A DNA stretch of 53,735 nucleotides from a bacterium. GTDB taxonomy: Bacteria > Babelota > Babeliae > Babelales > RVW-14. Where the stretch lies: contig JAHFBQ010000001.1 in assembly GCA_023249935.1 (NCBI GenBank), positions 1 to 53,735 on the forward strand, read 5' to 3'. Each line of letters starts with the position of its first letter. Positions within the stretch are counted from its first letter, which is position 1. The translations under genes and the position numbers were made by a program. Under the pieces are notes generated by a model. The model was given only the letters and a program-made list of their open reading frames with translations. It had not been told where the DNA came from and made no database searches. Below are positions 10,274-27,897 of this stretch, in pieces.

Positions 10274-10330
10274 AAAACTCTCTCTTTCTCAAGGCGGCGG
10301 CTACTCTCGAATCTAGTCTATGAGTGAATT

Positions 10331-11417: not shown

Positions 11418-12122
11418 ATGAAGAAATTATCTATTGTTATCCCTTGCTATAATGAATCAAAGAGTATTCCATATTTACTGGAACAGTTTTCTGAAGGTAT
11501 TGGTACGCGAGATATCGAAGTAGTATTGGTTGATAATGGTTCTTTTGATGAAACACCTGCTGTGATTACTGCATTGCTGCCGCGGTACCAATTTGCCAAA
11601 ACAACTCGTGTAGAAAAAAACCAAGGATATGGGTTTGGGATTTTGAGTGGTCTGCGTGTTGGGACTGGAGATTTTTTGGGATGGATGCATGCTGATCTTC
11701 AATCTGATCCAAATGATGTGATGCGTGCCTATGACATCATTACCAAAAGTGCGCATGCGCAGCGACTTTTTGTAAAGGGTACACGTTCTGGCAGGCCACT
11801 ATTTGATCAATTTTTTACCTTGGGCATGAGTACTTTTGAAACTATGTATCTGCAAAAACCACTCTGGGACATTAACGCTCAGCCAAACATTTTCCATCGA
11901 AGCTTTTATGAGCGTTGGGATAATCCACCTCATGACTTTGCGCTTGATTTGTATGTGTATTGCATGGCAAAAAAGCTTGGGCTGCGTATGCAGCGGTTTC
12001 CCGTAGTTTTTGGTCCGCGTCAATTTGGGACTTCTTCATGGAACTCAGGGCTCAAAGGGCGATGGAAATTTATTACGCGGACATTCTCATTCTCGGCCGA
12101 TGTAAAGAAGCAGTTGAGGTAG
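11418..12122 (+). CDS. Soluble GT2-family glycosyltransferase (DPM1/GtrB-like catalytic domain without membrane anchor)
   Basis: Motifs LSIVIPCYNES, LVDNGSFDET and HADLQSDP. AGGAG lies 5 nt before ATG 11418. Confidence 0.75.
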   Translation: MKKLSIVIPCYNESKSIPYLLEQFSEGIGTRDIEVVLVDNGSFDETPAVITALLPRYQFAKTTRVEKNQGYGFGILSGLRVGTGDFLGWMHADLQSDPNDVMRAYDIITKSAHAQRLFVKGTRSGRPLFDQFFTLGMSTFETMYLQKPLWDINAQPNIFHRSFYERWDNPPHDFALDLYVYCMAKKLGLRMQRFPVVFGPRQFGTSSWNSGLKGRWKFITRTFSFSADVKKQLR

Positions 12123-13716
12123 GACCACTTTCCTTCGAATACGGGTGCCATGTGCACTTGTGGAAGAAGCTCTGCCAGTAATTAAAAGTTCTTAGATCAT
12201 TTGGTGTGCCCCAACAGACGTAAAAATCAACTTTGAAAACATAGACTTGTAACCCAAATTTTATGAGTTCTCCAGCAAGGCTATCAACGTAAAATTCGTT
12301 GTTAACACGAATATTGTTTTTATAGAGTGATTCAAGGCCAGCTTGAAAATAAGCAGCCTTTTTAAAATAAAAGGCGCCAACGATTGCATGATCGTTTTCT
12401 GGTGTATCTGAAATTGGTTTTTTTACAGAGACTGAGATTGCTTTGTTATTCGCATCCGTCGCAACCCAGCCATACATCTGTGGATTGATTTTGGCAGATG
12501 GGTGATTTTTAAATGTCCAAATGATCGCATCAACATCAGGTCTAGAGCGTAGAGCTGCGTATTTTTGAGCATCATACAGCATGCTGTTGTCGCAGGCGCC
12601 GATGGTGACAGGACTTTCTTGGTCAATATTTGCCAACCCAATGGCACAAGTACATGCTTGGCCTTCGGTGACGGCATTGATGCCAATGACCGAAGCTTGC
12701 GAATAGGTTTCGTTTAACGTTTGTTCTAGCGGTGATGCATCGAGGTGTTCTTGTAAGCAGACAAAGATTTGTTTTTCTGCTTGAGGCAGAGCGGCGGCAG
12801 CTTGCACGATCATTGGCTTACCGCTGACGGGAATGAGCGGCTTTGGCAATGAATATCCTTCATCACTAAAGCGTTTACCTCGGCCGGCTAGGGGGATTAG
12901 GTTGACGCTGTTTTTTTCTACCCCGCAACCGCCCTTTGTCATTCCACAAGTTATCTTTTCGCTCAATGCCCTAAAATAATCAGACCATGCTTGGTATTCC
13001 CGTAAGTCCTGAGGCGTGCCCCACTGAAGCATGTGTTCAATCTCATAAATCGAGACTGGCAAACCATCTTCAACGAGCAGATTGTATACAAGGCTGACGT
13101 AAAATTCACCGTTGATGCTTAGGTTGCGCTCCATTGCACGAGCAAAATATTTTTTAACAAGGCTGCCATGTGCAAAGTAGTAGGTACCATTGGAGGCATA
13201 CTCTTGCATGCGGTTATTAGTGAATGGTTCTTTTTCTTTAATTTGCTCGAGCCATTGGTCTGTATCTTTGATAAAGGCGTAGTTGGTGGTGCCAAGCATG
13301 TGTGGATGAAATCCTCGATACGATGGGATTGCTCCGGCGGCACCGCGGCTACGGGTATGATGTAAGAAATTCTGATAGTCCCAGTAGGTGCCAAAGTCGC
13401 AGTAATTAACGATGACTTCTTCTTGATCATCGATCAAATGTTGGACCTGTAGGGTTGCAAACACGGGCCCTTTTTTATGAGGAGGAATGCTGACTATGGT
13501 TCCTGAGGGGGCAATACGTTGTAAAATTTCACGCATTGCAGTTGTTTGTAAATGTTCTTCGTTGCAGATGAACGTAAATTTTTTTTCACCAGGAAAGAGG
13601 TTGACGACGTGTTCAATGATTGGCTTGCCATCAACGGGAATTAAAGGTTTTGGATCTTTATAGCCAGCAGCCTGAAAACGAGCACCAATGCCTGACATTG
13701 GAATGATGATGTGCAT
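12073..13716 (-). CDS. Tandem-duplicated sugar-phosphate nucleotidyltransferase-fold protein (two NTP_transferase-like halves)
   Basis: Two copies of the N-terminal signature: IIPMSGIGARFQAAGYKDPKPLIPVDGKPII and LIPLAGRGKRFSDEGYSLPKPLIPVSGKPMI. Each is followed by ...NGEFYV.../...NNEFYV... and WGTP.DL. GGAGAG precedes ATG 13716 (track start 13734). The 3' tail overlaps the convergent GT2 gene by 50 nt. Confidence 0.75.
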   Translation of the reverse strand: MHIIIPMSGIGARFQAAGYKDPKPLIPVDGKPIIEHVVNLFPGEKKFTFICNEEHLQTTAMREILQRIAPSGTIVSIPPHKKGPVFATLQVQHLIDDQEEVIVNYCDFGTYWDYQNFLHHTRSRGAAGAIPSYRGFHPHMLGTTNYAFIKDTDQWLEQIKEKEPFTNNRMQEYASNGTYYFAHGSLVKKYFARAMERNLSINGEFYVSLVYNLLVEDGLPVSIYEIEHMLQWGTPQDLREYQAWSDYFRALSEKITCGMTKGGCGVEKNSVNLIPLAGRGKRFSDEGYSLPKPLIPVSGKPMIVQAAAALPQAEKQIFVCLQEHLDASPLEQTLNETYSQASVIGINAVTEGQACTCAIGLANIDQESPVTIGACDNSMLYDAQKYAALRSRPDVDAIIWTFKNHPSAKINPQMYGWVATDANNKAISVSVKKPISDTPENDHAIVGAFYFKKAAYFQAGLESLYKNNIRVNNEFYVDSLAGELIKFGLQVYVFKVDFYVCWGTPNDLRTFNYWQSFFHKCTWHPYSKESGPTSTASLHRPRMRMSA

Positions 13717-13929
13717 TAATTCTCTCCATCTCAATGTGAAATTGCTTACTAACTGAAAGTTAGCAGGTTTTTCTAGGCATTCAAGTAGATTGTAATTGCT
13801 GAATATTTTGCCGGGTATATCTAAAACCCTTTACATCTGTAAAAGATGTGCAATCTTTGCTCTAGTAAAAAGAGGAAGGAGGCGCAGTGTGTTCTAAGAT
13901 GTAGTGCCATCATTAAAAAGCTTACTCAG

Positions 13930-16900
13930 ATGAAATATACTCGATATCTTCTGCTCATCGTTCTTCTTTTCAATAACAATCAAATGTATGCCGGGCTGGT
14001 TGCAGGAACTAACATTGCGACAAATGGTCAGTCAGTAGCAATAGAAAATCTTTTGCGAGGTGATTTTGTTGTTGGGTATGACTTAAAAACACAAGTGTAC
14101 CCTGTGATAGCGGTAACGGCTGTGCAGTTGCATAGGGCTGTGGTGACGTATGCGATTGCAACTGATCGTGGCGTAATTGTAGTGACAGCAGATCAATTAC
14201 TCTTCGATGTTGTTGGTAAAAAGTTTGTAACAGCTGATCAGTGGTCTACGATGTGTATCTTTTTGACTAAAGATATGCAGCAGCTGCCGACGCGAGAAAT
14301 AAAAATCGATAGTGCCGTTGCAGCAGATTGCTATGATGTATCGTTGGAGCAGCCATATCTTTTTTTTGCATCTGATGCGCAAGTTTTGATGCATAACAAT
14401 CCGCTTGTTCTAGCGGTTCCGCTGACGCTTGCAGCTGTTGAGCTGGCTCCTCAGCTTATAAACTTATGCATGATGCTTGAAAATGCTCACAGCAAAGCAG
14501 CGGTTGCTGTGCGAAGAGCGCAAGCGCTGACTCAGCCAGTAGTTCCAACGCCGATATTGTCCGAACAAGTTGCAAAACAGCCTGCGCAGCAAATGAGAAT
14601 AGTACAGGTTTCACAAGCTACATCTCAAAAAAATAATCAATCAATACCTCGTCATGAAGTGCAAGCGGTACAACCTATTCTTTCAGTTGCGAAATCATCA
14701 AAGAGTAATGAATTATTTGTTTCGCAGCCAACACAAGGCTACAAATTTTCAGATGAAGCTGTACAGCGGGCAAAGTCGATAGATGTAAAGCTCTTACAAA
14801 ATCCCATCATGTATAACGATCGTCATTCAGAAATAAGTGTAACTGGATCGATTAATGGAGATGTGGTCTGCTCTAATGAATCTCAATCGAGAGGATATCT
14901 TCATATCAACCTCAACACTGAGCGAAACAACGAACGAGTCCAGGAAGCGAGAGATCGAGATCGGTGGGCGAGAAGATCGGGCAAGAGGCTGATTATCAAA
15001 GGAAACCAACATTATTTTACACCGGCTTGGTTTCTTGAGAATGCTCAAGCTTTGGCCGAACAAACAGGAATGTCGCTAGATGACGTTCTGTTTACTAATT
15101 TTGAAAATTTTCAATACCCAAACTACTTGCAAGTGTTGCACCATCGGCGCAACTATGATCAAAAGATTCTGGAGCTGCGAGATTTGTTGAGACAGGAAGA
15201 AAAGGGGTGGTTTTCATCAACTACAGAAGGCAAAAAATTAAACAGAAGATTTTGCTCAGGAGAAGGATTTAAGTTTTTCCACGGCAGTGATGAGGTGAAG
15301 TTATCGGAGCTGATTGAACGGTTAGCAAAAAAAGTAGAAGCGAGGCAAGAAGATGAACATAAAAAATACCTCGCCTGGCAAGCAAAGCAGGCGGAAGAAG
15401 CAGAAGTTGCAAGGCAGCAGGCCTTGTTTGCAGAACGAATTGTACGAGCGAAAAGCTGCTACAATCGAGTAATTGCCGAGCAACAACTTGAGGTAGCGGC
15501 TCACAGCGGCTTGTATGAGAAGTACGAAGAAATTGTGGTTCATGGCAGATTATATCGCAGCATAGATGAACCTAAGGCATTTTCTCACGTGTTTAAATCT
15601 GTACAAAACAACGACTACAGCGAAAGCTACAAAAAGTTTTTAGCTGATCGAAACATGCCTATCTTGCGCCAGAGCAGGAATGATGCGGCCAAAGCAATTG
15701 ATGAAATCATTCGTGAAATGTATCAAGCAGATCAACATTTTGGTTATTTATACGATGTTGTTCATGCGCACAGCATCGCGCTTCGGCTAATTTCTGTTGC
15801 CGATCGAGCTGAGCAATACAACGACTCTCCTATGATGTCAGCAGCGACTGCGCAGCTGCTTGAAGCGGCGCGCGGATTTGTACGTTCTGCTGAGCAACTT
15901 GGTGAGTACTATGTGACAAGCAACATGGCCGCGCATCATACAACAACTACAATTAATCATCTGATTCATAAGGTGTTGATTCCGCTGGAAAGGCATGCTG
16001 CAACGGTTGCTGGCAATAAAGTATCGTTACCGCAAGAACTTGCACGCAGTACAGTATGCCCGGTAACAGTTTTAGCCAATCTGTACAAAAATCCTGAAAA
16101 CAAAGAGCTTGCTCAGCAGTGTAAAGCGGTACTGGCAGATCTTTTGGCAGAAGAAGAGTTTATTGTGCAAGCAGCAGCAAAGGGTAGCGTTCAAGTCCCA
16201 ACAGAAACGCCGCTTGTCAAACTTGCAACGCAAGCGGGAAACCTTGGCAGTTGTACGGCAGCACAAGCACCGCCATACATACCATCAGCAACCATGGCAC
16301 GGGGTCGTCAAAAAGAATTTTTCCGCAAGGTTTCCATATCTAGCAACCAGGGAGATCGAGAAGATATATCGCCAGAAGCTTTTGTGAATGGTGCGATCAT
16401 TGATTGTGCTCATAAGCATAAGGAGTCATTTGAGGATAAACGTCAAGCGGTTATCAGCGACATAAAAGAGTATGAAAAAACACTGTTTGATCTAACGCCG
16501 CGATCTGTGAGCATCGACGAAGCAGCGGCACAGCAATTGCAAAACCATGCCCCATCGTGGATAACGGCGACTATGACTGGTAACGGGCAAGTTGCCGTTG
16601 CCGCTCATTGCTATCGGCTCGCATCATACGATGCATCAACAAGAGCATGGCATTTTATTGTTGATGCAGATGAACCAGCCCTATATGATCGAATGGTTCC
16701 ATATGTTCATGAGTTTGTCAAAGCTGAAGAGAAACGCGAGCTTGATGAGCTGCGCAAACTCACAGCATTCTGGCCCCAAGAGATACGCTATGCATTCAAG
16801 ATCGGTTGGCCAGTGCGCAAAGATCAGCCACAAGAAAATTCGGGTAAAAGAATATGGCAAGCGCAAGCAGCGGGCATACGCCACGGGAACTTAGCAAGAA

Positions 16901-17724
16901 TCTTCGGAGAGTATTCATACTCATTTCAAGCGCTTGATTTTATGCTTGCCAACAATCTTGCACCATCACGTATTGTACATATTCTGCGTAATGGAGAGTA
17001 CCCCAAAGCTCATCGTTCCGACCGCGAGCTACGCAGCTTAGACGGTATCGTAGTGGTTTTCGAGAAAGATACAAAAACCATTTGCGGCATTGGTACGATC
17101 AATGAACTTGATCTACTCAATGAGTATCCATCAAGAAAAACACACCAATGTATTCCCGACCAAGAGCCAGCGTCTTCTTCAGGTGTCTGTCTTCCTGAAA
17201 AAAATGCTGAAGAGTCATCCTGTGGGGGCAGCTGCGACAATACCGACACGACAAATACACATGGTTTATGCGGCAGCAGTTATAACAAAGAACATGAATT
17301 TCCCTCATCTTCGCCAAACGAAGGCTTACCAGAACCAGAAACTAAACCCTGCGCTTGGAGCCAACAGCCGCAGCTCCCGGGATTTGATGAGGATGGTGTG
17401 GTGGAAGTGCTTGCTGATGGAAGTAATCAAGTTTTGCCTGAGACAACTTCTTCTGAAGGTGATGATGGCAAAATAATATATAAGCACGGTTTTAAGTATC
17501 ATCCAAGAATAAGACAAAGAGGATTGCAGGACCCTAAGGCACACAATTTTCCATACTCATTTGACGATATTATTTTAAAAACTAACCCAATAAAACAAAA
17601 AGATGGCTCCTTATTGTACATATTAGAAGGAATTTTGAATGAAAAGCGCGGAGTGTTCGAAATCGCTATTAATACAGAAACTAAAACCATTTTTCATAGA
17701 ACATTTAGGGGATCAAAAAAATGA
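13930..17724 (+). CDS. Secreted polymorphic-toxin-like protein: signal peptide, N-terminal Hint-like domain, long mostly helical body, conserved pre-toxin region, variable C-terminal domain (CT1)
   Basis: Signal peptide MKYTRYLLLIVLLFNNNQMYA at ATG 13930 (the track start at 13846 adds a Cys/Lys-rich extension). Hint blocks lie at 13993-14397. The 3' constant region is repeated twice downstream. An immunity-like ORF overlaps the stop. Confidence 0.75.
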   Translation: MKYTRYLLLIVLLFNNNQMYAGLVAGTNIATNGQSVAIENLLRGDFVVGYDLKTQVYPVIAVTAVQLHRAVVTYAIATDRGVIVVTADQLLFDVVGKKFVTADQWSTMCIFLTKDMQQLPTREIKIDSAVAADCYDVSLEQPYLFFASDAQVLMHNNPLVLAVPLTLAAVELAPQLINLCMMLENAHSKAAVAVRRAQALTQPVVPTPILSEQVAKQPAQQMRIVQVSQATSQKNNQSIPRHEVQAVQPILSVAKSSKSNELFVSQPTQGYKFSDEAVQRAKSIDVKLLQNPIMYNDRHSEISVTGSINGDVVCSNESQSRGYLHINLNTERNNERVQEARDRDRWARRSGKRLIIKGNQHYFTPAWFLENAQALAEQTGMSLDDVLFTNFENFQYPNYLQVLHHRRNYDQKILELRDLLRQEEKGWFSSTTEGKKLNRRFCSGEGFKFFHGSDEVKLSELIERLAKKVEARQEDEHKKYLAWQAKQAEEAEVARQQALFAERIVRAKSCYNRVIAEQQLEVAAHSGLYEKYEEIVVHGRLYRSIDEPKAFSHVFKSVQNNDYSESYKKFLADRNMPILRQSRNDAAKAIDEIIREMYQADQHFGYLYDVVHAHSIALRLISVADRAEQYNDSPMMSAATAQLLEAARGFVRSAEQLGEYYVTSNMAAHHTTTTINHLIHKVLIPLERHAATVAGNKVSLPQELARSTVCPVTVLANLYKNPENKELAQQCKAVLADLLAEEEFIVQAAAKGSVQVPTETPLVKLATQAGNLGSCTAAQAPPYIPSATMARGRQKEFFRKVSISSNQGDREDISPEAFVNGAIIDCAHKHKESFEDKRQAVISDIKEYEKTLFDLTPRSVSIDEAAAQQLQNHAPSWITATMTGNGQVAVAAHCYRLASYDASTRAWHFIVDADEPALYDRMVPYVHEFVKAEEKRELDELRKLTAFWPQEIRYAFKIGWPVRKDQPQENSGKRIWQAQAAGIRHGNLARIFGEYSYSFQALDFMLANNLAPSRIVHILRNGEYPKAHRSDRELRSLDGIVVVFEKDTKTICGIGTINELDLLNEYPSRKTHQCIPDQEPASSSGVCLPEKNAEESSCGGSCDNTDTTNTHGLCGSSYNKEHEFPSSSPNEGLPEPETKPCAWSQQPQLPGFDEDGVVEVLADGSNQVLPETTSSEGDDGKIIYKHGFKYHPRIRQRGLQDPKAHNFPYSFDDIILKTNPIKQKDGSLLYILEGILNEKRGVFEIAINTETKTIFHRTFRGSKK
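13993..14397 (+). other. Degenerate Hint (intein/hedgehog-type) domain, Gly at position 1, terminal His-Asn retained
   Basis: G-LVAGTNIATNGQSVAIENLLRGDFVVGYD ... VIVVTADQLLFDVVGKKFVTADQW ... CYDVSLEQPYLFFASDAQVLMHN. Confidence 0.65.
17009..17396 (+). repeat. Pre-toxin handle, copy A (inside the full-length toxin gene)
   Basis: Manual alignment to 19221-19605 (copy C). This includes about 160 nt (17051-17209 vs 19263-19421) with only 3 mismatches. The 3' part also aligns to 18059-18240 (copy B). Confidence 0.9.
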
Positions 17725-18023
17725 AATATTTAACGTTAATGCCTGATTATACTGGGTCTTGTATTAGGGATGATTTTGAAGGTCAAATTGAACCAACTCT
17801 TTTGGGATTGCCACAAAGCTTTCTTAGAAGGTTATATACATGGCAAGATTTATATAAAAAAATAATTCCACTAGACCAAGATGAGCGTGAAAAAAAAATT
17901 CATGAAATAGAAAGATTGGACCAAGAAGGTCTTTCTCTTGCCAAGGAGTTAAGACAACTGATACCTGGTGGTGCTAAAGTAAAATACTTTAGTGAAGGGC
18001 TTGGGAAAATTATTCACAGCTAA
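17721..18023 (+). CDS. Putative immunity protein for CT1
   Basis: 100-aa ORF whose ATG overlaps the toxin stop (ATGA, 17721-17724). The call rests on position only; no family recognised. Confidence 0.6.
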   Translation: MKYLTLMPDYTGSCIRDDFEGQIEPTLLGLPQSFLRRLYTWQDLYKKIIPLDQDEREKKIHEIERLDQEGLSLAKELRQLIPGGAKVKYFSEGLGKIIHS

Positions 18024-18058
18024 ATTAATAACTATCCAATAATTCATCTGCTATCAAA

Positions 18059-18240
18059 CCATCATGCGGTGCTAGCAACAGTAATACTGACACGACAAAT
18101 ACACATGGTTCATGCGGCAATGGCAGCATGAGAGAATACGACCACCTCTCATCTTCACCAGACGAAGGCTTGCCAGAGCCAAAAACTCAACCCTGTGATT
18201 GGAGCCAACAGCCGCAGATCCCGGGATTTGATGAGGATGA
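18059..18240 (+). repeat. Pre-toxin handle, copy B (3' part only)
   Basis: Aligns to about 17214-17396 of copy A and encodes ...TDTTNTHGSCG...SSSPDEGLPEPKTQPCDWSQQPQIPGFDED. The frame is open from 18032, directly after the immunity-1 stop region. Confidence 0.85.
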
Positions 18241-18694
18241 AGAGGTTTGGGAGAAAGGTTCTCTGGAAATCGAAAAAGAACTTCCTAATAGCAAAGATAA
18301 TCAACAAGAGAGTGATAATAGTGGTTTGATTCCAGATGATAATAAGCTAGCTAGAGGGCGAGCTATAAATGAAAATGGAAGGGTTTTTGAGAAGTTTCTT
18401 GAAAAAGAACTTGGAGCTCGTGGAAGTTTTAGAGTCACAAGCAAAATAAACGGGACTCGAGAATTTGATGGAGCTGTAGGAAATGTTTGGTATGAGGCAA
18501 AAAGCGGCGAATATTGGAATTTATTGCTATCAAATGAGAAAAAGTTAGCAAAATTTAAATCTGATATGGGAAAAGGTTTGCAAATTACTCGCGAATATGG
18601 AGTAGCTTATCAACTTCACTCGAACACCCCTATTCCAGAAATTATAAAGAAATGGTTAATCAAAATGGAGATTCGATTTATTGAATGGTTATAG
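18128..18694 (+). CDS. Orphan toxin cassette 2: handle remnant fused to a PD-(D/E)xK-like (restriction-endonuclease-fold) candidate nuclease domain
   Basis: Homology to the big gene extends upstream of the ATG to 18032. Downstream of PGFDED comes a new domain containing REFDGAVGNVWYEAKSG (D-x8-E-x-K). Confidence 0.6.
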   Translation: MREYDHLSSSPDEGLPEPKTQPCDWSQQPQIPGFDEDEEVWEKGSLEIEKELPNSKDNQQESDNSGLIPDDNKLARGRAINENGRVFEKFLEKELGARGSFRVTSKINGTREFDGAVGNVWYEAKSGEYWNLLLSNEKKLAKFKSDMGKGLQITREYGVAYQLHSNTPIPEIIKKWLIKMEIRFIEWL

Positions 18695-18727
18695 TATTGT
18701 TCATCTCATGAAAATGAAAAGGTTGTT

Positions 18728-19210
18728 ATGTCAGTTTCAGCATCTTTTGATTTACGAGTTGTACGATCTTCAGGGAAAGAGCTTGCTTCTCAGATTGAGA
18801 TTATCAAAGCTCTAGCAAATTATGGATGGTCATTTTTTCGTGGCGAATATGTTTGCTATTTGCCTTATGGTGATAACGATAATTTTAATTGGACCGCTGA
18901 GATTATCAGTTTTGAATCGTTTTTAAAAATATTGGAACAAAAAGAAAAGAGATCCGAACTCATTGGAGTTTCAATGACATGGAAAAATTCGAACATTGAT
19001 GGAGAATTATTAATTTGGGGAGCTGAAGAGGCGAGAAAGAATAAAATTCACACACCAATATCATTCAATATGGCAGCAAATCGGAAACGATTTATTTCTC
19101 AAAATAATTATGAAATTACCGATGTTAATTGGTATATGGAAAAATTACTTCCTGCGCTTAATCAGAATGGTATGTATGTTGAGTATTTTTCTTATGAGGA
19201 ATATGACTAA
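18728..19210 (+). CDS. Putative immunity protein for orphan toxin 2
   Basis: 160-aa ORF 33 nt downstream of the orphan toxin, same strand, with AAAAGG before the ATG. The call rests on position only. Confidence 0.55.
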   Translation: MSVSASFDLRVVRSSGKELASQIEIIKALANYGWSFFRGEYVCYLPYGDNDNFNWTAEIISFESFLKILEQKEKRSELIGVSMTWKNSNIDGELLIWGAEEARKNKIHTPISFNMAANRKRFISQNNYEITDVNWYMEKLLPALNQNGMYVEYFSYEEYD

Positions 19211-19651
19211 CACTTTAAAACTCATCGCCACGACCGCGAGCTGCGCAGCCTAGACGATATTGTAGTGGTTTTCGAGAAAGATACAAAAACCATTTGCGGC
19301 ATTGATACGATCAATGAACTTGATCTACTCAATGAGTATCCATCAAGAAAGACACACCAATGTATTCCCGCCCAAGAGCCAGCGTCTTCTTCAGGTGTCT
19401 GTCTTCCTGAAAAAAATGCTGCCGAGCCTTCACGTGGCAGCGACGGCGACGATACTAACGCGACAAATATGCATGGTTCATGTGGCAGTACAAGAGAATG
19501 CGACCTCATCTCATCTTCACCAAACGAAGGATTGCCAGAGCCAAAAAATCAACCCTGTGGTTGGAGCAAACAGCCGCAGCTCCCAGGATTTGATGGGGAT
19601 GAGGAGGTGGGGAGCAATGTTGATCTGCAGCCAACGCTCTCTTTTGTATGA
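19211..19651 (+). pseudogene. Orphan handle copy C without a toxin domain (remnant)
   Basis: The frame is open directly after the immunity-2 stop: HFKTHRHDRELRSLDDIVVVFEKDTKTICGIDTINELDLL...WSKQPQLPGFDGDEEV, then 15 unrelated codons and a stop. There is no upstream start context apart from GTG 19265. Confidence 0.7.
19221..19605 (+). repeat. Pre-toxin handle, copy C
   Basis: See copy A. This is the longest and best-conserved duplicate. Confidence 0.9.
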
Positions 19652-20154
19652 GGAACTTTATGAACGGTGACTTTAAAGTCGCCGACCTCGATTGTTTGAC
19701 CTGGTGCTAGTTCAACAAATTTTACACATTTAGTTACCGTTGCTCCGGCAAATGCGAGATTAAGAAATGTTTTTACGTGATTTTCAATGCCTACTGGACC
19801 ATAAATAGTAAACGGGCTTGGTGCAGCAATATCTTCTCCAAGGTCATGGGACCACTGGTTTACATGTAACCACGTCAAAATATCTGGAAGGTCGCCAATA
19901 TGATCAAAATGAAAATGAGTATAAAAAGCGCCGTGTAGCGTGGTTACATCGACATGTTTTGTTGCTGCCTGCAGAATGCCAGGACCAGCATCGACAAAAA
20001 CATGTGTGTTGCCGGCGCTTACGAGGTTACCAGGAGCTTTGCGGTGTGGTTGTGGCATGCATGTGCCAGAACCAAGGATAGTAAGCTGCGCAGAATAAGC
20101 GGTTTGTTGTAGGGTGATAGAGAGTAGAGAAAAGAGTAGCTGCTTGATTGACAT
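19549..20154 (-). CDS. MBL-fold metallo-hydrolase with N-terminal signal-like sequence, apparently 3'-truncated (likely pseudogene)
   Basis: Motifs LTILGSGTCMP, HFHFDHIGD (HxHxDH) and VPHTKESVG (motif-3 His). The frame then runs into the reverse complement of handle copy C (...STLLPTSSSPSNPGSCGCLLQPQG*). The later Asp and His motifs are missing. Strong RBS AAGGGAGG. Confidence 0.6.
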   Translation of the reverse strand: MSIKQLLFSLLSITLQQTAYSAQLTILGSGTCMPQPHRKAPGNLVSAGNTHVFVDAGPGILQAATKHVDVTTLHGAFYTHFHFDHIGDLPDILTWLHVNQWSHDLGEDIAAPSPFTIYGPVGIENHVKTFLNLAFAGATVTKCVKFVELAPGQTIEVGDFKVTVHKVPHTKESVGCRSTLLPTSSSPSNPGSCGCLLQPQG

Positions 20155-20166
20155 GGGCGTCCTCCC

Positions 20167-20724
20167 TTAATCAAGTTCTTTATCTTCAATTTCTTCTTTA
20201 GTTGTAAGTCCACTGATAGCAAAAGCTCGTTTGAGAGCCATGGCTTCAGCAACTTTGAGGATCATAGCGTTGGTGTACTGCTGCCAGATTGGAGCATCTT
20301 TTTTGTAATATTCTTTTATGCTGACAAAGACGGTGGTTGCCTTGTCTCTGTCCTTACGAAATACGCTGCAATAGGCGCCTGACAGTTTGCTTTTATCAAA
20401 CAGCAGATGTTCCGGGCCATAAGAAATATGGAGGCTGCCATCATCTCGTTTGGTCAAAATGTCATTTTGATAAACAACATCACTCTCGATGCCATTAAAA
20501 TTTTCATTAAGATTGGCTATTTTTAGATAGCCATCTCTGCTAGTCAAAATCGTTGTTTTGCTGCCGTACTTAATAAAATAGATCTCTTTTTTTAACGGAT
20601 CTAGATTGTACTCTTTGCAGAGATACATAAAGGTCTTAAATTCGTCATCGGTGGCTCCAGGAGCCACCGATTTGCGTAGAAGTTCTTCGTTTTCATGAGC
20701 TGTTGTACCGGTTGTTTTTGCCAT
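20167..20724 (-). CDS. RecT/Bet-family single-strand annealing protein (short form)
   Basis: GATDDEFKTFMYLCKEYNLDPLKKEIYFI, SRDGYLKIA and ...IWQQYTNAMILKVAEAMALKRAFAISGLTTKEEI match my recollection of the phage Bet/RecT signature blocks. Confidence 0.7.
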   Translation of the reverse strand: MAKTTGTTAHENEELLRKSVAPGATDDEFKTFMYLCKEYNLDPLKKEIYFIKYGSKTTILTSRDGYLKIANLNENFNGIESDVVYQNDILTKRDDGSLHISYGPEHLLFDKSKLSGAYCSVFRKDRDKATTVFVSIKEYYKKDAPIWQQYTNAMILKVAEAMALKRAFAISGLTTKEEIEDKELD

Positions 20725-20745
20725 GATATGATCTGCGCTCTTTCT

Positions 20746-21843
20746 TTACACCGCCTGGCGGTACTTCTCAGATTCCATAGCGGCCAAATACTTTAATTCT
20801 TCGTCTTCCAAGAACTGAAGATCTTGAGGTGCGATATTTTGTGTAACATTAACCACAAGAACCGACAGGTGGAACTTGAGGACTTCTTCAATTTCACGTG
20901 CCTTGCGTACTGAATCTGCTACGAAGAAAATAAGGTCATTGCAGATGATGACGCGTGGATAATCACCAAAATTTTCTTTGAATTTATTCATGGTGTCAGT
21001 GTCGTTGAAATCGCTCAAAATTAGTAAGCGGCTGCCGCAGTACACCAAGGTATCAGGGAAAAACGGTTTCTGTAGGAACAAGGGCTTGGCATTGGTGATC
21101 AACTCTTTTAGGCCTGCATCGCAAGACAAGTAAGAGACTTTATTCAACCCAAAAACAGCATTAACGCTTTCAGAGATTACCGAGGTAAGGCGGTAGGTAT
21201 TATTGGTGATCTTGAGGAATTGTTCAATTTTGATAGTAACTTCTTCAGTCAAAAATTTAACTTCTTGAGCGGTTGCTGCGCTGACAATGAGCCCGTGATT
21301 CTGCAAGAAAATGATCGAAGGCTTTTTGCCATGTGCTTTGATGTACGAGGTTACTTGTGGTTCAAGTTCTAGTGCCAACTCAATGCCTACCGTTTTATAG
21401 GCAACGCAGAGGCTTTCTGGATACAATTCTGTAAAAAGTTCACGCCAATTCTTGCGGCAGGCAAGCGTGTTTACTACGATGCCGTGCGTGTGTAGCGTGT
21501 AAGTATCAAGATAGGCATGCAGAAATGTTTCAATAGAGGGGCGCGCTGAGGCGTTTTTATCTTTGACCTTCATAAGAAGTTCTTCAGCAGCTTTTTCAAG
21601 ATCACCCTTTTCAAGAGATTCTTGTTGTTTGTGCAGTTTAGTTAGGCCTTTGCGTAGCGGTGCAAGATCAATTGATACAAAGCCTTGCGCAGCACCTACC
21701 TCGCTCAAGCTGATACCAGATGCCTTGATAAGCATCTGGCCGTCTTCAGTTTTATAAGAAGAGTTGCCGCCGCCAGCTTGTACTAAATCAAAGCGTTGGC
21801 CGGCCCATTTCGACAATTCAATAAGATCAAATGGTGGAGTCAT
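20746..21843 (-). CDS. Class II aldolase/adducin-domain protein (like the aldolase half of bifunctional rhamnulose-1-phosphate aldolase/SDR proteins)
   Basis: Motifs AGGGNSSYKT...MLIKASGISLSEV, YTLHTHG and PDTLVYCG. 365 aa, with no SDR domain. Confidence 0.6.
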   Translation of the reverse strand: MTPPFDLIELSKWAGQRFDLVQAGGGNSSYKTEDGQMLIKASGISLSEVGAAQGFVSIDLAPLRKGLTKLHKQQESLEKGDLEKAAEELLMKVKDKNASARPSIETFLHAYLDTYTLHTHGIVVNTLACRKNWRELFTELYPESLCVAYKTVGIELALELEPQVTSYIKAHGKKPSIIFLQNHGLIVSAATAQEVKFLTEEVTIKIEQFLKITNNTYRLTSVISESVNAVFGLNKVSYLSCDAGLKELITNAKPLFLQKPFFPDTLVYCGSRLLILSDFNDTDTMNKFKENFGDYPRVIICNDLIFFVADSVRKAREIEEVLKFHLSVLVVNVTQNIAPQDLQFLEDEELKYLAAMESEKYRQAV

Positions 21844-22547
21844 GATAGCCTCTTTTCAAGGTCATAGAAGGTCGAACATGTTTTAAACAGTGAATGCTCT
21901 GGTTGAGTTGTACTTGGTTCAGGTGTGAGCCAATAGGTTTCCATGCCCAAATGTTGGGCGGGGATGATATCGGCTGCAAGGTCATCGCCGATCATGCATA
22001 ATTCTTCAGGGCGAAGCTGCATTTTTTTGCATGCGGCTAGAAAAATTTTTTGGTCAGGTTTTTCACAACCGACCTCTTCACTGGTAATGAGATAGGTGAT
22101 GAGGTGATCGATTCCAAGCTGTTCAAGTTTTTGGTACTGAATATCAGCAACAAAATTGGTGATGATTCCTATTCGATAGGTTTCTGCTAAGCGGCCTAGA
22201 GATTCATTGAGTCCAGGGAGGGGCTTCATTGTAGCAAAAAACGCTGCCCAGTATTGTTTATATAAATCAGTTGTGAGTTTGGGCGAAAAAGATCCAAGCT
22301 GCTCAAGCATTGCTTGAATATAAAGTAAGCGATGATGGGATGCTGCAGTTGCATGTAGACGACGTTTAACTTGCTGTTTGCCCTGTTCGTAAACAAGCTC
22401 CAATTCTGCTTTGGATATTTTAGAAAGGCTATGCAAGCAGTCTAAAACGACAGCAAGTCCTGCCTGGTGAGCGGGCTCGTATCTATACAACGTGTTATCA
22501 AGATCGAGCAAGAGGCCTTTTATTGTTCCAGTGTGACTAGCGTGCAT
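21840..22547 (-). CDS. HAD-superfamily hydrolase (phosphatase-like)
   Basis: Motif I LLLDLDNTLY, motif II ITNF, motif III/IV K...MIGDDLAADI. Strong RBS AAGGAGAG. ATGA overlap with the downstream gene. Confidence 0.8.
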   Translation of the reverse strand: MHASHTGTIKGLLLDLDNTLYRYEPAHQAGLAVVLDCLHSLSKISKAELELVYEQGKQQVKRRLHATAASHHRLLYIQAMLEQLGSFSPKLTTDLYKQYWAAFFATMKPLPGLNESLGRLAETYRIGIITNFVADIQYQKLEQLGIDHLITYLITSEEVGCEKPDQKIFLAACKKMQLRPEELCMIGDDLAADIIPAQHLGMETYWLTPEPSTTQPEHSLFKTCSTFYDLEKRLS

Positions 22548-24597
22548 TTCTCTCCTTCATGCTTTCACTAATAACCATTAAGCAGATAAACTGCACGAAG
22601 CCATCGAATCCGTCAAGCCATTCAAGCTTGCTTGCCAAAAGTTCTTCGATGTTTGGTAGCAAGTCAGCGTACAATTGATGAAGCACCTGTGGGGGTAGTG
22701 GCTTATCTAAAATGAGTTCCTGCGTGCGTAGATCATCTGCATAATTCCATTCAGGTGAGCTGCCTTCTTGGATGAGCGTTTGTAGTAATGGTTCAATTTT
22801 AACATTTGAATCGAATGTAATTTTCAATTGTACGGTAAAGGAGGCGTGAGGGTCACCTACTTCAAAGATATCTTTGGTGAAATAGTGGATGACGATGTCA
22901 GCAAATTCCTGCTGAGGTGTAATATATTTTTTTATATCTTCTGCGCGGCGACGCATTTGCTCGAGAATGCGTTCTTTGCTGTGGCCTCGTTCCCGCATGT
23001 CGCGCACAATCTTCCAATGCTGTTTAATTTCTTCTTGAGGGTCCAAATAAATCTTTATATCCACAAGTTTGCGCATTTTGGGCAAATACAATGGATGCAG
23101 CCCACTGAGTAAAATAAACTCTGTCGGTTCAATTTTGCGTGGAGCGTCAAATTTGCCTGAGTGGTGGTTGTAGTCAATGCGCCAAGCAGGCTGATTATTT
23201 TTGAGTAATAACAATTGATCTGCTTGGCGATGTAAAAAATTGGCTTTTGGGTTGAGGTGGGTTACTTCTTGCCAATGAGCATCGCCGCGTTCCCAACGAT
23301 GATCGCCATCGCCTTCAATCAAGGTTGCTCTATGCCCAAATATATTAGTGAATTGTTTCATGAGCGTGCTTTTACCGGTGCCGCTATCGCCGCTAATGCC
23401 GATGACTAAGTTTTGTTGCCGAGCATACAGTTCATTACTTTTGATACCGGTTTTGTACACAAAATAGATAACCAAAAATAAAACACTCTCGAGAAGTGTG
23501 AAAGCAATGCTAGCCAGCTTGTCATGGTGGATTTTGATATCGAGGGGGCTGCCTAAAAATAGGAGATCATTAATTCCTTTTTCATGATAGAAAAATACAA
23601 AAAATAGCAAGTAGGCAAGATTGAGTCCAAGATATAGCAACACGAGTAAGCGATTGTGCTGGTAATTGCGGATGAACAACAAGGCGACGAAGGGGAGCAT
23701 CCAGACATACCACGCCGGTGCAGGAATAATGAAAAATACCAGCAGTGCAAACGTAATGGCCAAAAAACTATCGAGGAGATCGAGATTGATTTTTTTATAG
23801 GTAAAAAATCGGCCATATAAAACGAGGAGCGCAAACAGAGGGACAAGTAGTTTTACGTAGCCAAGCTGTGCAAACACATCAAACACCATCATCTGCTTCT
23901 GGTGGGTCAATACCATGCGATAGAACCCTTCAGACATGATAAAAGGTGCAACAAAAAAGCCATACACCATTGCAGCTAAAGCACTAAACGATATCGCTGT
24001 TTTAAGACCATTGTTTTTCCATAAATAAATAGCGAGTAGAGGTCCTGCGGCTGCTACGTGAAATTTAGTTGCCAGTGCTGTGCCAAACACTGCGGCGGCC
24101 AGTAACGGGTTTTTTCTTCTGATTAGGTAGAGTGCTAAAAAGAGCAATGTAGTCGGAATGATGTCTAGCTGGGTATGAATGAATGAGGCGTAGAGGATGA
24201 TCGGTGAAAAAGAGAGAAAAAAAATGGTCTCCAATGCCTTGCCATTGCTAGATCTAAGCATGAGGTAGGTTAAGAGGCTGTCGGCGAGGAGGATTGGCAT
24301 TTTTAGGAGCAGTGCTTGTATGGCCAAAGAGGCACTAAATAAATGACCCATTTTGACAAACGATGTTAGTAGATACAGAGTTACCGGGTTGTATGGAAAT
24401 TCGATGCCGGTACCAAGTTGCCAAAAATGTTGCCATGGGTTGTCGCCATGTGTTGCAAAATGATCTACAAACGGTAAGAAAAATTTAGAAACAAATTCAG
24501 AACTAAAGATGACCAGAAAAAGAAACTTAATAGCGATACTTATGATGAATAGTAGCCGGTAATTATTAGCGCAAACACGATCCAACACTCTCTTCAT
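22537..24597 (-). CDS. Fusion protein: N-terminal GT-C-like (DUF2029/GT87/PIG-V-like) membrane domain + C-terminal phosphoribulokinase/uridine-kinase-family P-loop domain
   Basis: Multi-pass region 23413-24597 (HGDNPWQHFW...FPYNPVTLYLL...LLKMPILLADSLL). Kinase region 22537-23412 (VIGISGDSGTGKST, IEGDGDHRWERGD, THLNPKANFLH, SGLHPLY, KIVRDMRERGHSKE, ITPQQEFADIVI). AAGGAG lies 5 nt before ATG 24597 (track start 24684). Confidence 0.7.
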   Translation of the reverse strand: MKRVLDRVCANNYRLLFIISIAIKFLFLVIFSSEFVSKFFLPFVDHFATHGDNPWQHFWQLGTGIEFPYNPVTLYLLTSFVKMGHLFSASLAIQALLLKMPILLADSLLTYLMLRSSNGKALETIFFLSFSPIILYASFIHTQLDIIPTTLLFLALYLIRRKNPLLAAAVFGTALATKFHVAAAGPLLAIYLWKNNGLKTAISFSALAAMVYGFFVAPFIMSEGFYRMVLTHQKQMMVFDVFAQLGYVKLLVPLFALLVLYGRFFTYKKINLDLLDSFLAITFALLVFFIIPAPAWYVWMLPFVALLFIRNYQHNRLLVLLYLGLNLAYLLFFVFFYHEKGINDLLFLGSPLDIKIHHDKLASIAFTLLESVLFLVIYFVYKTGIKSNELYARQQNLVIGISGDSGTGKSTLMKQFTNIFGHRATLIEGDGDHRWERGDAHWQEVTHLNPKANFLHRQADQLLLLKNNQPAWRIDYNHHSGKFDAPRKIEPTEFILLSGLHPLYLPKMRKLVDIKIYLDPQEEIKQHWKIVRDMRERGHSKERILEQMRRRAEDIKKYITPQQEFADIVIHYFTKDIFEVGDPHASFTVQLKITFDSNVKIEPLLQTLIQEGSSPEWNYADDLRTQELILDKPLPPQVLHQLYADLLPNIEELLASKLEWLDGFDGFVQFICLMVISESMKERNAR

Positions 24598-24686
24598 ACG
24601 CTCTCCTTGTGCTTTGTTGAGCCTTGAGCATACTAAGTTTGAGAGAGTATGTAACCAATCTAAATGTAAAAATTCTGGAGGCATTA
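24598..24686. promoter_or_regulatory. Divergent intergenic control region between the GT-C/kinase operon and the plus-strand GT-C pair
   Basis: 89-bp gap flanked by clear SD sequences on both strands (AAGGAG for 24597, GGAGG for 24687). Promoter hexamers not confidently assigned. Confidence 0.4.
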
Positions 24687-26285
24687 ATGAGGCTGCAAAA
24701 GCTGCAGATGTTGTTGGGGATTTTACTTTTCGTTATTGCTATGGGTGTACTCGCACTTCCCTACTATCCTTGGGGTTTCATGCGGGATGATTATGGATTT
24801 TTAGCTCACGCCGCTGCTTATGTTCACGGCTGGTCTGAGTTTTTTAAGCCGCACAATGTTGTCGACTTCGTCTATTCATCAGCAATCAATCCGCCATTTT
24901 CTTGGAGTGGGTCTTTTTACCGGCCAATTCAATTTATTCATTTTGCTCTCGAATATCTTTTTTTTGGTACCAATGCCTATGCGTATCTGATATGGATAGT
25001 GTTTATGCATGCTGGAATAGTAGTAAGCTTATTTAGCATAGGACGTACATTTTTTTCTGCGCAGCGAGCATTTTTTGTTGCTTTGATAATTCTTCTCCAT
25101 CCGATGCTTATGTTGTGGATGGGGTGCTTTACTCAGCAAATTTACATTATTGATGTGGTTTATTTTCTGAGTATAACAGCGCTTCTGAAAAAATTTTGCG
25201 ATACCAACCATTGGCGATGGTATATGGCATCATGCTTATTGTTTTTTGTAGCTCTTTTTGCAAAAGAAACGTTGATAACTTATCCAGGGTGGGTTTTTAT
25301 AGCTCTTATATGGTATCTATTACAATGTGATCAATTAAAAAAATGGTATAACCAAGTTTTTCCTGCACTAAAAATAGCTAGTGGATACGTATTTGTAGGC
25401 ATTTTCTATCTCGCCTCAAGGTATCTGATTTTTGCGGGAGCGACTGATGGTGTGATAAAATTTTTTGGCTTCTCAAGCTGGCAGGCATTTGTTGCCAGGC
25501 AATCTGAGCGATTTTTTGATCTCGTAACCTATGTATGCAACTATCTTTATATTGGTATGGTGCCTGGAGGTAACTGGTTGCGCAAAATGGTGCTGGTTAT
25601 GTTGATTATTGGTCTTCTTGCATATCCCTTTATTCGTAAACGACAACTCCTGTTACTTTTTTTTCTTGGGTTTTCAATGCTGGCCGTAACGTGGCCAGCT
25701 TGGTTACTTTACTACCATACACGCTATGCCTATGCTGGATTGATATTTTTGTATTTCATCTTCTTGTTTGCCATTGATTTTTATTTGAATAAATTTGTGA
25801 GGCTACGTCGCATATCACCATTACTAGGATTTTGCGTAGTTGCTGTGCTTGGATGCAATGCAATCAGTATGCAACGAATAAAAAATAGTGTGCTTTCTAC
25901 GGTGACGGGAGCGGCGCGTGAACTTGCTGTCCAGGTGCATGAAACGGTGCGGCCGCTTATCTTTATAGGGTTGCCGCACTGTTGGTTTGCATCGGGAGCA
26001 GGACAACTAGTTAAACTTTTCTATCCACAAGATAAGCGGTTAGTAGATGTTGGAATTTTGCTCTTTGGTGGCGAAGAGTTTGGGCTTTTAAGCCAACATG
26101 ATGTCCGTGTTGAACGACGAGGAGATCTGGTTGATATCGGTCTTGCTGCGAATGATAACCTTAGCTTCTTGAATCACCAAAAAGAAGAACGTTTTGTGAG
26201 TATAAAACTCTCCTGGGAGTTGTTGACAGATAATGCAATCATTATCACCTGGGATTATAAGCGACACGGATTTAGGATTATTTAA
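24687..26285 (+). CDS. GT-C-fold membrane glycosyltransferase-like protein, PMT/TMTC-like paralog (long form)
   Basis: Motifs WGFMRDDYGFL, FYRPIQF...FGTNAYAYL, FAKETL, YIGMVPGGNW and HTRYAYAG. The C-terminal domain ends IIITWDYKRHGFRII. Confidence 0.7.
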   Translation: MRLQKLQMLLGILLFVIAMGVLALPYYPWGFMRDDYGFLAHAAAYVHGWSEFFKPHNVVDFVYSSAINPPFSWSGSFYRPIQFIHFALEYLFFGTNAYAYLIWIVFMHAGIVVSLFSIGRTFFSAQRAFFVALIILLHPMLMLWMGCFTQQIYIIDVVYFLSITALLKKFCDTNHWRWYMASCLLFFVALFAKETLITYPGWVFIALIWYLLQCDQLKKWYNQVFPALKIASGYVFVGIFYLASRYLIFAGATDGVIKFFGFSSWQAFVARQSERFFDLVTYVCNYLYIGMVPGGNWLRKMVLVMLIIGLLAYPFIRKRQLLLLFFLGFSMLAVTWPAWLLYYHTRYAYAGLIFLYFIFLFAIDFYLNKFVRLRRISPLLGFCVVAVLGCNAISMQRIKNSVLSTVTGAARELAVQVHETVRPLIFIGLPHCWFASGAGQLVKLFYPQDKRLVDVGILLFGGEEFGLLSQHDVRVERRGDLVDIGLAANDNLSFLNHQKEERFVSIKLSWELLTDNAIIITWDYKRHGFRII

Positions 26286-26286
26286 T

Positions 26287-27897
26287 ATGAATAATATAAA
26301 ACAGAGAAATATGCTGATCGTAATGGTGACGGTGTTTCTTATTGCTTCCTTAGTTGTTCTTGCACTTCCCTATACCTCCTGGGGTTTTATTACCGATGAT
26401 TTTGGGCTTGTGTGGCATAGCAGGGTTGAATCGCTGTGCGAACTGGGTAAGTTTTTTACTGAGATGGGGCTGCATACGTTTATGCAACCAATAAATTACA
26501 TGCCGTCCGAACAATCGTTTTTTGCTGTATTGTACCGTCCGTTGCTTTATGTTTTTTATGGGATTCAATATTTATTGTTTGGTTTTTCTGCCTATGGGTA
26601 CATGATAGTTTCGGCATTACTCCATGGCATCAATGCTGTTCTCGTCTGGTTAATTTTTAGAAAATATTTTTCAAAAACAATCGCCGCACTTGGTGCCGGG
26701 TACTTCTTATTTCATCTTTCAATGCTCAATTGGTTTGGTTGGGTGACAGCACAACAACATTTGTTAGCGCTGTTTTTTTCGCTGCTAGTATTTATTTGTT
26801 ATCAGTGTTTTATAGATTCTCAGCGTAAAATATACCTATTTTCGGCAATAGCCCTAGTTGCTTGCTCGTTGTTAACTCGTGAGACACTCATCGTATTGCC
26901 TGTCTGGGTAGTTTTTGCGTTGGTGTGGCATTGGCGTACGGCACAACATAAGTTTCTTCTGCTTGTTACCGCTGCATTGCCTGTTGCAGGATATTTTTGC
27001 TGGCGTATTAGTCAATTTCCCCTCAAGGCATCGAACAGTGATTTAACGTGGGTTACTCGAGGGGGCTTTGCTTTTTTCACGTTCCTTAGAGAACAGTTTT
27101 TAAATTATGTTACGTGGCTTGTTGATTTGACCAATCTTGGGTTTGTTCCCGGCGGTAATCGATTGCGCAAAGGGACGTTGATCATCATGGTAGTCATGCT
27201 GCTTGCCTACTTGTTTTGGAACTGTCGCAAGAAATCAACGGTGTTGTTTTTGCTAGCAAGTACTATTGCTTTTGCTTGGCCTTCAGTGATTCGCTTTTAT
27301 ACCTCGCGTTTTATGTACGAGGCATTACCCTTTTTTATTGCAGCAATTTTGCTGCTCATTTTTGAAAATGATATTTCATTCAGGCCGAAAGCGTTGATCT
27401 TCGGTGCTCTGATAGCATTTAATGGCATGATGTTCCCAAATTTTTTATCAGCGCGTGAAAAAACGTTGAAAGCTATTAACATTGCAGTTCACGATCTTGT
27501 CATGCAGCTACCAGAAAATTCGAAGTCGATTGTTTTTGTTGGTCTACCGTTTGGATGGTTTTGTACAAGTGTTGCTCAGGCTTGCTACATGACTGGGTTG
27601 TCAACATCGGTGCCGGTGTACTATGACAAGCAGACTTTTGTGTGGAGTGAGCTCGAGCCAGCCGGTATTTCTCCTGAGATTCAGATTCGGCGGATAAGTA
27701 AGTCGGTATTGGAGGTCACTCTTAACAAGCCTGTAATATTCGCATTTGGTGATCGTGGTACAAACTTTGGCATCAAAGAGTGGCGAGACGAAGATGATGC
27801 GACCGTGCTTCATTGGGATATGATAAACGATCGCTTTGAAACGCCAGACGTGGTAATCACCTGGGATTATGAAAAAAACTGTTTTCGGCTGCTATAA
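26287..27897 (+). CDS. GT-C-fold membrane glycosyltransferase-like protein, PMT/TMTC-like paralog (long form)
   Basis: Motifs WGFITDDFGLV, LYRPLLY...FGFSAYGYM..LLHGIN, LTRETL, NLGFVPGGNR and TSRFMYEALPFF. The C-terminus is VVITWDYEKNCFRLL. ATG 26287 lies 1 nt after the upstream stop. Confidence 0.7.
   Translation: MNNIKQRNMLIVMVTVFLIASLVVLALPYTSWGFITDDFGLVWHSRVESLCELGKFFTEMGLHTFMQPINYMPSEQSFFAVLYRPLLYVFYGIQYLLFGFSAYGYMIVSALLHGINAVLVWLIFRKYFSKTIAALGAGYFLFHLSMLNWFGWVTAQQHLLALFFSLLVFICYQCFIDSQRKIYLFSAIALVACSLLTRETLIVLPVWVVFALVWHWRTAQHKFLLLVTAALPVAGYFCWRISQFPLKASNSDLTWVTRGGFAFFTFLREQFLNYVTWLVDLTNLGFVPGGNRLRKGTLIIMVVMLLAYLFWNCRKKSTVLFLLASTIAFAWPSVIRFYTSRFMYEALPFFIAAILLLIFENDISFRPKALIFGALIAFNGMMFPNFLSAREKTLKAINIAVHDLVMQLPENSKSIVFVGLPFGWFCTSVAQACYMTGLSTSVPVYYDKQTFVWSELEPAGISPEIQIRRISKSVLEVTLNKPVIFAFGDRGTNFGIKEWRDEDDATVLHWDMINDRFETPDVVITWDYEKNCFRLL

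Follow-up and report, generated by a model that had tools for sequence, protein, structure and literature searches.

The RecT/Red-beta family of single-strand annealing proteins is known in phages from a two-component module, in which an annealase is paired with a 5′-3′ exonuclease, and the C-terminal domain of lambda Red-beta binds both this exonuclease (Exo) and the single-stranded DNA-binding protein (SSB). Host-encoded, chromosomal and vertically inherited repair proteins that anneal single-stranded DNA (ssDNA) are RecO and Deinococcus DdrB, which come from families unrelated to RecT and are comparable to it by functional analogy only. The textbook phage annealase retained in a bacterial chromosome is RecT of the Escherichia coli Rac prophage (PMC8987985), and, as far as the summary of Iyer et al. 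2002 in the same source goes, bacterial genes of the RecT/Red-beta/ERF/Rad52 type are sporadic and flanked by phage genes. Here we analyze a RecT/Bet protein of 185 amino acids (aa) that is encoded in a 53,735-nucleotide (nt) stretch of DNA, hereafter the window, from a bacterium of the Babelales (contig JAHFBQ010000001.1 of assembly GCA_023249935.1). We consider it likely that the gene represents, in this organism, a core-only Bet/RecT annealase that was domesticated long ago and serves general, RecA-independent annealing in repair and recombination, and that its adjacency to a toxin array and a metallo-beta-lactamase (MBL)-fold gene is a lineage-specific accident of island formation. The RecT/Red-beta family itself is known; what appears to be new is a lineage-wide, vertically maintained, minimal stand-alone annealase, strongly constrained and common to many genomes in a phylum that depends obligately on hosts and has reduced genomes. 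A literature search found no paper pairing Dependentiae with RecT, and none in which this gene is mentioned.

The open reading frame (ORF) is intact and begins with ATG. It matches the Pfam RecT profile PF03837 over profile positions 10-190 of 198 (E 4.6e-33, 114.9 bits), scores 79.8 bits against the NCBIfam equivalog TIGR01913 (bet_lambda, "phage recombination protein Bet"), which is above the curated cutoff of 76.95, and is also matched by the PHROG RecT/Bet families 2780 and 252 with E values down to 2e-37. An AlphaFold model built from a 38-sequence alignment (pLDDT 90.4, pTM 0.83) has as its best Foldseek match 7UJL, the N-terminal domain of lambda Red-beta (probability 1.0, TM 0.58/0.66), which is at the same time the sole PDB entry matched by sequence; second best is 7UB2, the RecT of Listeria phage A118 (LiRecT, probability 1.0), and apart from these two no fold was retrieved at E<0.1. 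The assignment to RecT/Bet made in the original prediction is thus borne out by the profile search and the Red-beta fold, and by both lines the ORF is a genuine Redβ/RecT-family DNA-annealing protein, with annealing activity predicted from the family.

The window RecT has exactly the length of the 185-residue N-terminal-domain chain deposited for lambda Red-beta, but the two proteins are only ~21% identical. It differs further in that it lacks a C-terminal domain, has no adjacent exo or gam, and is chromosomal and conserved across a bacterial lineage, whereas Red-beta is phage-borne. Rac RecT and Listeria phage A118 RecT share PF03837 with it. However, Rac RecT lies in a recognizable defective prophage together with the RecE nuclease and is restricted to close E. 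coli relatives, whereas the window RecT has neither prophage nor nuclease and is 70-90% identical across many divergent genomes. The comparison with the phage two-component module gives the same picture, since exonuclease, C-terminal docking domain and prophage are all missing: in an alignment with longer relatives, which add a domain of ~50 aa, the window protein stops ~5 residues past the annealing core and carries no C-terminal partner/SSB-binding domain, and no partner exonuclease (lambda Exo/RecE/YqaJ-type or other nuclease) adjoins RecT in the window or in the annotated loci of relatives. A protein reduced to the bare annealing core, without the docking domain, would therefore act independently of any dedicated nuclease partner.

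A search of 5.8 billion proteins returned 484 RecT homologues. The best 120 of them each share 70-90% identity with the window protein, and any names given within this group are Candidatus Dependentiae or just "bacterium". Twelve loci come from a species-representative genome collection, and these belong to TM6/Babeliales metagenome-assembled genomes (MAGs) or to unclassified or mislabeled MAGs. When representatives at 50% identity were searched exhaustively, the whole Dependentiae RecT set fell into one representative, and a further 9,238 members of the family, more distant and mostly of 250-440 aa, lie outside it.

The gene is under strong purifying constraint. Synonymous sites are saturated against every relative (pS 0.67-0.92, compared with pN 0.06-0.23), and where dS is calculable the ratio of nonsynonymous to synonymous substitution rates (dN/dS) is 0.037-0.049, with 0.037 against the closest relative. 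Comparison with ribosomal and other translation-related proteins of the same genomes, which covers three genome pairs, showed that RecT is conserved at least as well as L19, S16, Ffh and TrmD. Between L003 and L013 (labels L001-L050 denote loci or contigs of relatives) RecT is 85% identical, compared with 84% each for L19 and TrmD; between L003 and L006 the values are 82% for RecT and 69%, 60% and 54% for Ffh, S16 and TrmD; and between L003 and L021 they are 74% for RecT and 54%, 64% and 56% for L19, S16 and TrmD. RecT identity thus drops as ribosomal-protein identity drops, and this parallel fall fits mainly vertical descent of RecT under very strong constraint.

Chromosomal contexts were viewed over ±10 kb around each homologue. 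About 20 distinct chromosomal RecT loci were inspected, including chromosomes or contigs of 0.64-1.52 Mb (some chromosomes of 1.35-1.5 Mb), and across these no phage gene, exonuclease partner, MBL gene or toxin array lies within 10 kb of RecT. In loci with gene calls RecT stands alone among housekeeping, ankyrin-repeat and sometimes DNA-repair genes; the seven annotated chromosomal loci are free of phage structural, replication and exonuclease genes beside RecT, and the sole integrase-family neighbor among annotated loci is an adjoining XerC/D-type recombinase in L022. No synteny of RecT with the window neighbors or the toxin array was found in 26 loci compared. The cluster ffh-rpsP-khpA-trmD-rplS is located 4-8 kb from RecT in four loci (L003, L006, L013 and L021), which points to an ancestral chromosomal position, and a gene for an S-adenosylmethionine (SAM)-dependent methyltransferase adjoins RecT in four independent genomes. 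Such partial linkage fits what is expected for an old chromosomal resident in rearranging genomes. A photolyase gene is found 3-9 kb from RecT in four loci (L001, L005, L010 and L020), and Ogt, AlkD-like and Tag genes within 10 kb in two (L003 and L020); this linkage is too loose for an operon and may be a hint of a repair-related neighborhood.

The nearest relatives outside the Dependentiae chromosomal clade are uncultured-phage Bet/RecT genes, which are 55-67% identical and differ from the window RecT in being embedded in phage modules and, for the most part, in having a C-terminal extension. The IMG/VR contigs L017-L019 encode a 67%-identical RecT, with tail-fiber and terminase genes alongside in L018 and L019; the RecT-SSB-primase-RusA phage module, seen in L029, is the setting of P0125 (~55% identical), with tail-fiber genes. 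RecT relatives from cultured phages reach at most 40.5% identity. In a simple neighbor-joining (NJ) tree, the Dependentiae RecTs form one tight clade, with L018, P0121 and P0122 just outside it, and most of the phage relatives in the 55-67% range fall outside this clade. Two forms of RecT occur within the clade, one of ~255 aa with an extra helical C-terminal domain of ~50 aa, as it is also present on most phage relatives, and one of 171-200 aa that ends after the core. Because all homologues at least 79% identical to the window RecT are short and the long forms are found in the basal part of the tree, this pattern suggests that the C-terminal domain was lost after domestication.

In the model that we favor, a phage-derived gene would have been domesticated long ago in Dependentiae (TM6/Babeliales) and kept as a stand-alone chromosomal gene. 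Its product would bind ssDNA arising at resected breaks or on the lagging strand, oligomerize into helical filaments and anneal complementary strands without RecA, and would thereby support repair by single-strand annealing as well as recombination of repeats that are short or diverged. Both the annealing activity and the cellular role are what we infer from family membership. As rec and ruv pathways have been reported in Chromulinavorax (PMC6561590), the only place where RecA and these pathways are documented, RecT is probably not a simple replacement of RecA. If RecT is indeed a core repair and recombination factor, it would provide a clean natural example of deep phage-recombinase domestication, a minimal 185-aa annealase that apparently works without a nuclease or an SSB-docking domain, and a candidate recombineering tool for Dependentiae-like organisms. 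A more far-reaching version, which we put forward tentatively and regard as somewhat short of an even chance, is that a phage Bet/RecT was captured early in Dependentiae, lost its partner-binding C-terminal domain in the crown group and became a near-universal, functionally central host recombination and repair protein whose rate of evolution is below that of several ribosomal proteins. In that case RecT would be the first phage annealase turned lineage-wide core gene, in place of a sporadic prophage passenger, and its ORF-sized relocations (in the window, L005 and L023) would perhaps result from its own annealing activity.

Several observations weigh against a general, vertically inherited annealase. 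In Babela massiliensis, phage-related genes were reported to be absent (PMC4378268), so that some Dependentiae may lack RecT. The gene context differs even in the closest relative (L023/L024; 90% identical at the aa and 82% at the nt level), where homology to the window begins exactly at the RecT ATG (20724) and ends at the stop codon with unrelated flanks on both sides, and some horizontal movement is likely. The tree has no support values, and in it the short 185-aa phage copy of L019 nests on a long branch inside the Dependentiae clade, which may reflect host-to-phage transfer or an artefact. As the view was ±10 kb per homologue, the window copy could be a second, island-borne one. Furthermore, the ribosome-binding site (RBS) of the window RecT is weak, and three metatranscriptomes of the same study contain no contigs on the 12-26 kb region, a result that is uninformative because the organism is rare (4-6x DNA depth).

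Three of these loci deserve a note in their own right. L019 may come from a phage of Dependentiae, and to our knowledge no such phage has been described. L023/L024 have their own AT-rich leader upstream of RecT and a small membrane protein gene as well as a class II ribonucleotide reductase-like gene downstream. In L005, two RecT relics on the same strand, corresponding to aa 15-47 (6503-6601) and aa 146-176 (13164-13256), flank a 6.5-kb segment with two photolyase-family genes, an intact RecT (near 9953-10516) and three other genes; apparently a segment bringing in another copy has interrupted or replaced a resident RecT.

How RecT came to lie at its present position in the window became apparent from a comparison with syntenic relatives, whose aldolase-operon loci were found by an alignment-based metagenome scan (features are listed in the table below). 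The closest aldolase-bearing relative, L050 (78% aa identity), is collinear with the window and shares with it the order ABC transporter, histidyl-tRNA synthetase (HisRS), Mur ligase, PRK fusion, HAD phosphatase, aldolase, double NTP-transferase, family 2 glycosyltransferase (GT2), a 351-aa gene and a further GT2. At the DNA level, L050 7320-11098 corresponds to window 24521-20746 and L050 11126-12693 to window 13716-12137, so that a gap of 27 nt between the aldolase and NTP-transferase genes in L050 compares with one of 7,029 bp in the window. Seven loci (L030, L031, L033, L036, L038, L039 and L050) have the NTP-transferase gene immediately after the aldolase gene, and the gene order of the upstream half is kept in nine related loci. 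By this comparison, the block between the two genes is an insertion specific to this lineage, which interrupts a widely conserved sugar/glycan operon, and RecT is not an original member of that operon. The original prediction had described RecT as embedded in a glycosylation operon, which is correct as to its position between operon genes, but it lies there inside a 7-kb insertion and is not native. The block consists of two convergent units, the toxin array on the plus strand and, on the minus strand, RecT with the MBL fragment after it, and no repeats, target duplications or transposase or integrase genes were detected at its borders.

The MBL gene that follows RecT is a 5′ fragment. Only the N-terminal half of the profiles is covered (Lactamase_B_2 positions 2-116 of 200 and RNase Z positions 1-144 of 302), whereas its homologues are 271-298 aa long and match the Apyc1-like model PF23023. 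The alignment to these homologues ends at ...PHTKESVG, at about residue 175 and near nt 19630; the MBL-derived part thus extends over ~19630-20154, and the last ~26 codons of the ORF read the third handle copy of the array in antisense. The last ~100 aa of the hydrolase, including the conserved GDT and C-terminal His motifs, are missing. The MBL/handle junction is identical in independent assemblies from several runs and two studies and is therefore not a chimeric assembly product; no alternative joints at the array or insertion junctions were seen in contigs from seven runs. Intact MBL homologues occur in unrelated contexts and never adjoin RecT. A recombination pair of RecT and MBL, which had been proposed with reference to phage modules, was accordingly rejected: its second member is a truncated, Apyc1/RNase-Z-like gene, and intact homologues sit elsewhere without RecT.

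The array convergent with these two genes comprises a full-length gene of 1292 aa, small downstream ORFs, one orphan cassette and a handle-only remnant. The orphan cassette is located at 18128-18694, and small ORFs follow the toxin gene (17721-18023) and the cassette (18728-19210). The handles fall into two repeat families, D1 (272 nt, 89%) and D2 (145 nt, 83%), with an overall identity of 71-89%. Within 13846-19210, neither the 1292-aa "toxin" nor the orphan cassette nor the small ORFs have a Pfam match at E≤1e-3, and the sole PADLOC match of the 1292-aa protein, to Cas8a with E 0.0032, is at chance level. Since Pfam gave no matches and PADLOC no meaningful ones, the toxin/immunity assignment is one of architecture only. 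To judge by the handle-only remnant, one deletion may have taken out a third cassette along with the 3′ half of the MBL gene.

Could RecT be a dedicated accessory of this array that brings orphan cassettes into the expressed gene by annealing the 145-272-nt handles, as originally suggested? RecT and the array do lie in the same insertion relative to syntenic relatives, and one recombination or deletion scar is present, in which the MBL gene is joined at its middle to the last handle copy. Red-beta/RecT-type annealases recombine diverged sequences, and the 71-89% identity of the handles is within the tolerated range, so that these would be plausible substrates on which a RecT acting in trans could contribute incidentally. 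However, tblastn searches with the toxin, the cassettes and the small downstream ORFs against all RecT loci of relatives gave no match, no homologue of toxin, cassette or immunity gene is located within 10 kb in the ~20 distinct loci, and toxin-type Pfam domains are absent from the annotated contexts. RecT is kept in every related locus examined, which speaks for a general function; an annealase acting in trans has no need of adjacency, and the two units are convergent and not co-transcribed. The idea of cassette switching therefore retains the shared insertion and the suitable handles and loses the co-location in relatives; a dedicated role of RecT in it is unsupported, and we consider it unlikely. 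The alternative offered with it, that RecT is the last decaying remnant of a prophage without host function, can appeal to the phage origin of the family, to the phage genes among its nearest outgroups, and to the missing partner genes and C-terminal domain. It is very hard to reconcile with an intact ORF at a dN/dS of ~0.04 with saturated dS and a conservation equal to or better than that of ribosomal proteins, which speak for a domesticated annealase and not for a decaying remnant. Moreover, many genomes carry RecT without a nearby phage gene, also on Mb-scale chromosomes, and the window itself is homogeneous in composition with no phage genes among its scanned ORFs. We therefore regard a decaying remnant as highly improbable.

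A further explanation holds that RecT is a mobile, ORF-sized gene, possibly driving its own relocation or that of adjacent islands, which hops between chromosomal sites and between Dependentiae and phages and has recently landed in the window. The exact ATG-to-stop homology with the closest relative, the differing contexts in most loci, the relic fragments around an intact RecT in L005 and the phage copy nested in the host clade would all be in line with such movement. On the other hand, there are no repeats, target duplications or transposase or integrase genes at the borders, and saturation of dS even between the closest copies indicates that the moves are not recent. The partial linkage to the ffh-rplS cluster and to the SAM-methyltransferase gene fits ordinary genome rearrangement, and flanking non-coding DNA is unalignable at this divergence anyway, so we consider mobility of this kind quite improbable. 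The likely reading thus remains a domesticated general annealase, and the window RecT provides no evidence for a prophage or a toxin-switching machine; the real local event is the 7-kb insertion, which split a conserved glycan operon and truncated an MBL gene.

Table. Features of the RecT locus in the 53,735-nt window.
Feature	Positions	Strand	Basis
RecT/Bet single-strand annealing protein, core annealing domain only	20167-20724	-	Pfam, NCBIfam and PHROG profiles; fold
Truncated MBL-fold hydrolase ORF (Apyc1/RNase-Z-like)	19549-20154	-	N-terminal profile matches only; homologues longer
Polymorphic-toxin-like array, convergent with RecT/MBL	13846-19651	+	ORFs and repeats
Third, terminal handle repeat; abuts and truncates the MBL gene	19217-19627	+	Repeat families D1 and D2
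Inserted block of 7.0 kb: toxin array, MBL fragment, RecT	13717-20745	.	Comparison with syntenic relatives
Spacer of 21 nt, aldolase stop to RecT start; also right-hand junction of the 7-kb insertion	20725-20745	-	Homology ends
Upstream operon half: membrane GT-like/PRK-family kinase fusion (715 aa), HAD phosphatase (235 aa), class II aldolase-like (365 aa)	20746-24684	-	Pfam, NCBIfam
Class II aldolase-like gene (365 aa)	20746-21843		
Downstream operon half: double NTP-transferase gene, likely true start ATG 13716	12073-13716	-	Pfam; L050 alignment

The spacing of the minus-strand genes is as first described, with 21 nt between the stop of the aldolase-like gene (20746) and the RecT ATG (20724) and 12 nt between the RecT stop (20167) and the MBL ATG (20154). 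The good RBSs claimed for these genes were confirmed for MBL, which has a strong, well-spaced GGGAGGA 5 nt from its ATG, but not for RecT, which is preceded only by AGAAAGAG located 13 nt before the ATG. Several of the 19 RecT leaders compared show only a weak GGAA-type RBS, and these 19 leaders share neither a LexA-type box nor another conserved upstream motif. Consensus promoter and terminator scans of the window gave no more sites than in shuffled sequence, so that co-transcription of RecT is argued from spacing alone; RecT is probably transcribed by read-through from the sugar/glycan operon.

The absence of exonuclease, integrase and other phage genes, already remarked upon in the original prediction, holds among the window ORFs scanned (~9.3-38 kb plus 354-1556). 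No Rfam family and no tRNA that could mark an integration site was detected in the window, and composition is uniform across it. Membership of RecT in an anti-phage defense system was also considered and rejected, as PADLOC models gave no match for RecT, MBL, aldolase or cassettes. The genes around RecT encode GT2 and GT-C glycosyltransferases, NTP-transferases, an epimerase, a Mur ligase, HisRS and an ABC transporter.

The interrupted operon looks like a pathway, apparently an uncharacterized one, to an activated sugar that would be derived from a pentose or pentulose and used to glycosylate the envelope. The best NCBIfam match of its HAD phosphatase is ribulose-1,5-bisphosphate 5-phosphatase, below the cutoff, and the set of GT-C-like/PRK, HAD, aldolase and NTP-transferase genes occurs both in Dependentiae and, at 39-47% identity, in metagenomic contigs that are more distant. 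As a consequence of the insertion, the downstream operon genes depend on a 130-nt region shared with the toxin promoter. In addition, the window encodes seven tandem paralogous membrane proteins of ~440-590 aa (1549-9318 and 24624-27897), one of which has a PMT_2/GT-C match; a similar set is present in L050, and together they represent an expanded GT-C-like glycosyltransferase family.

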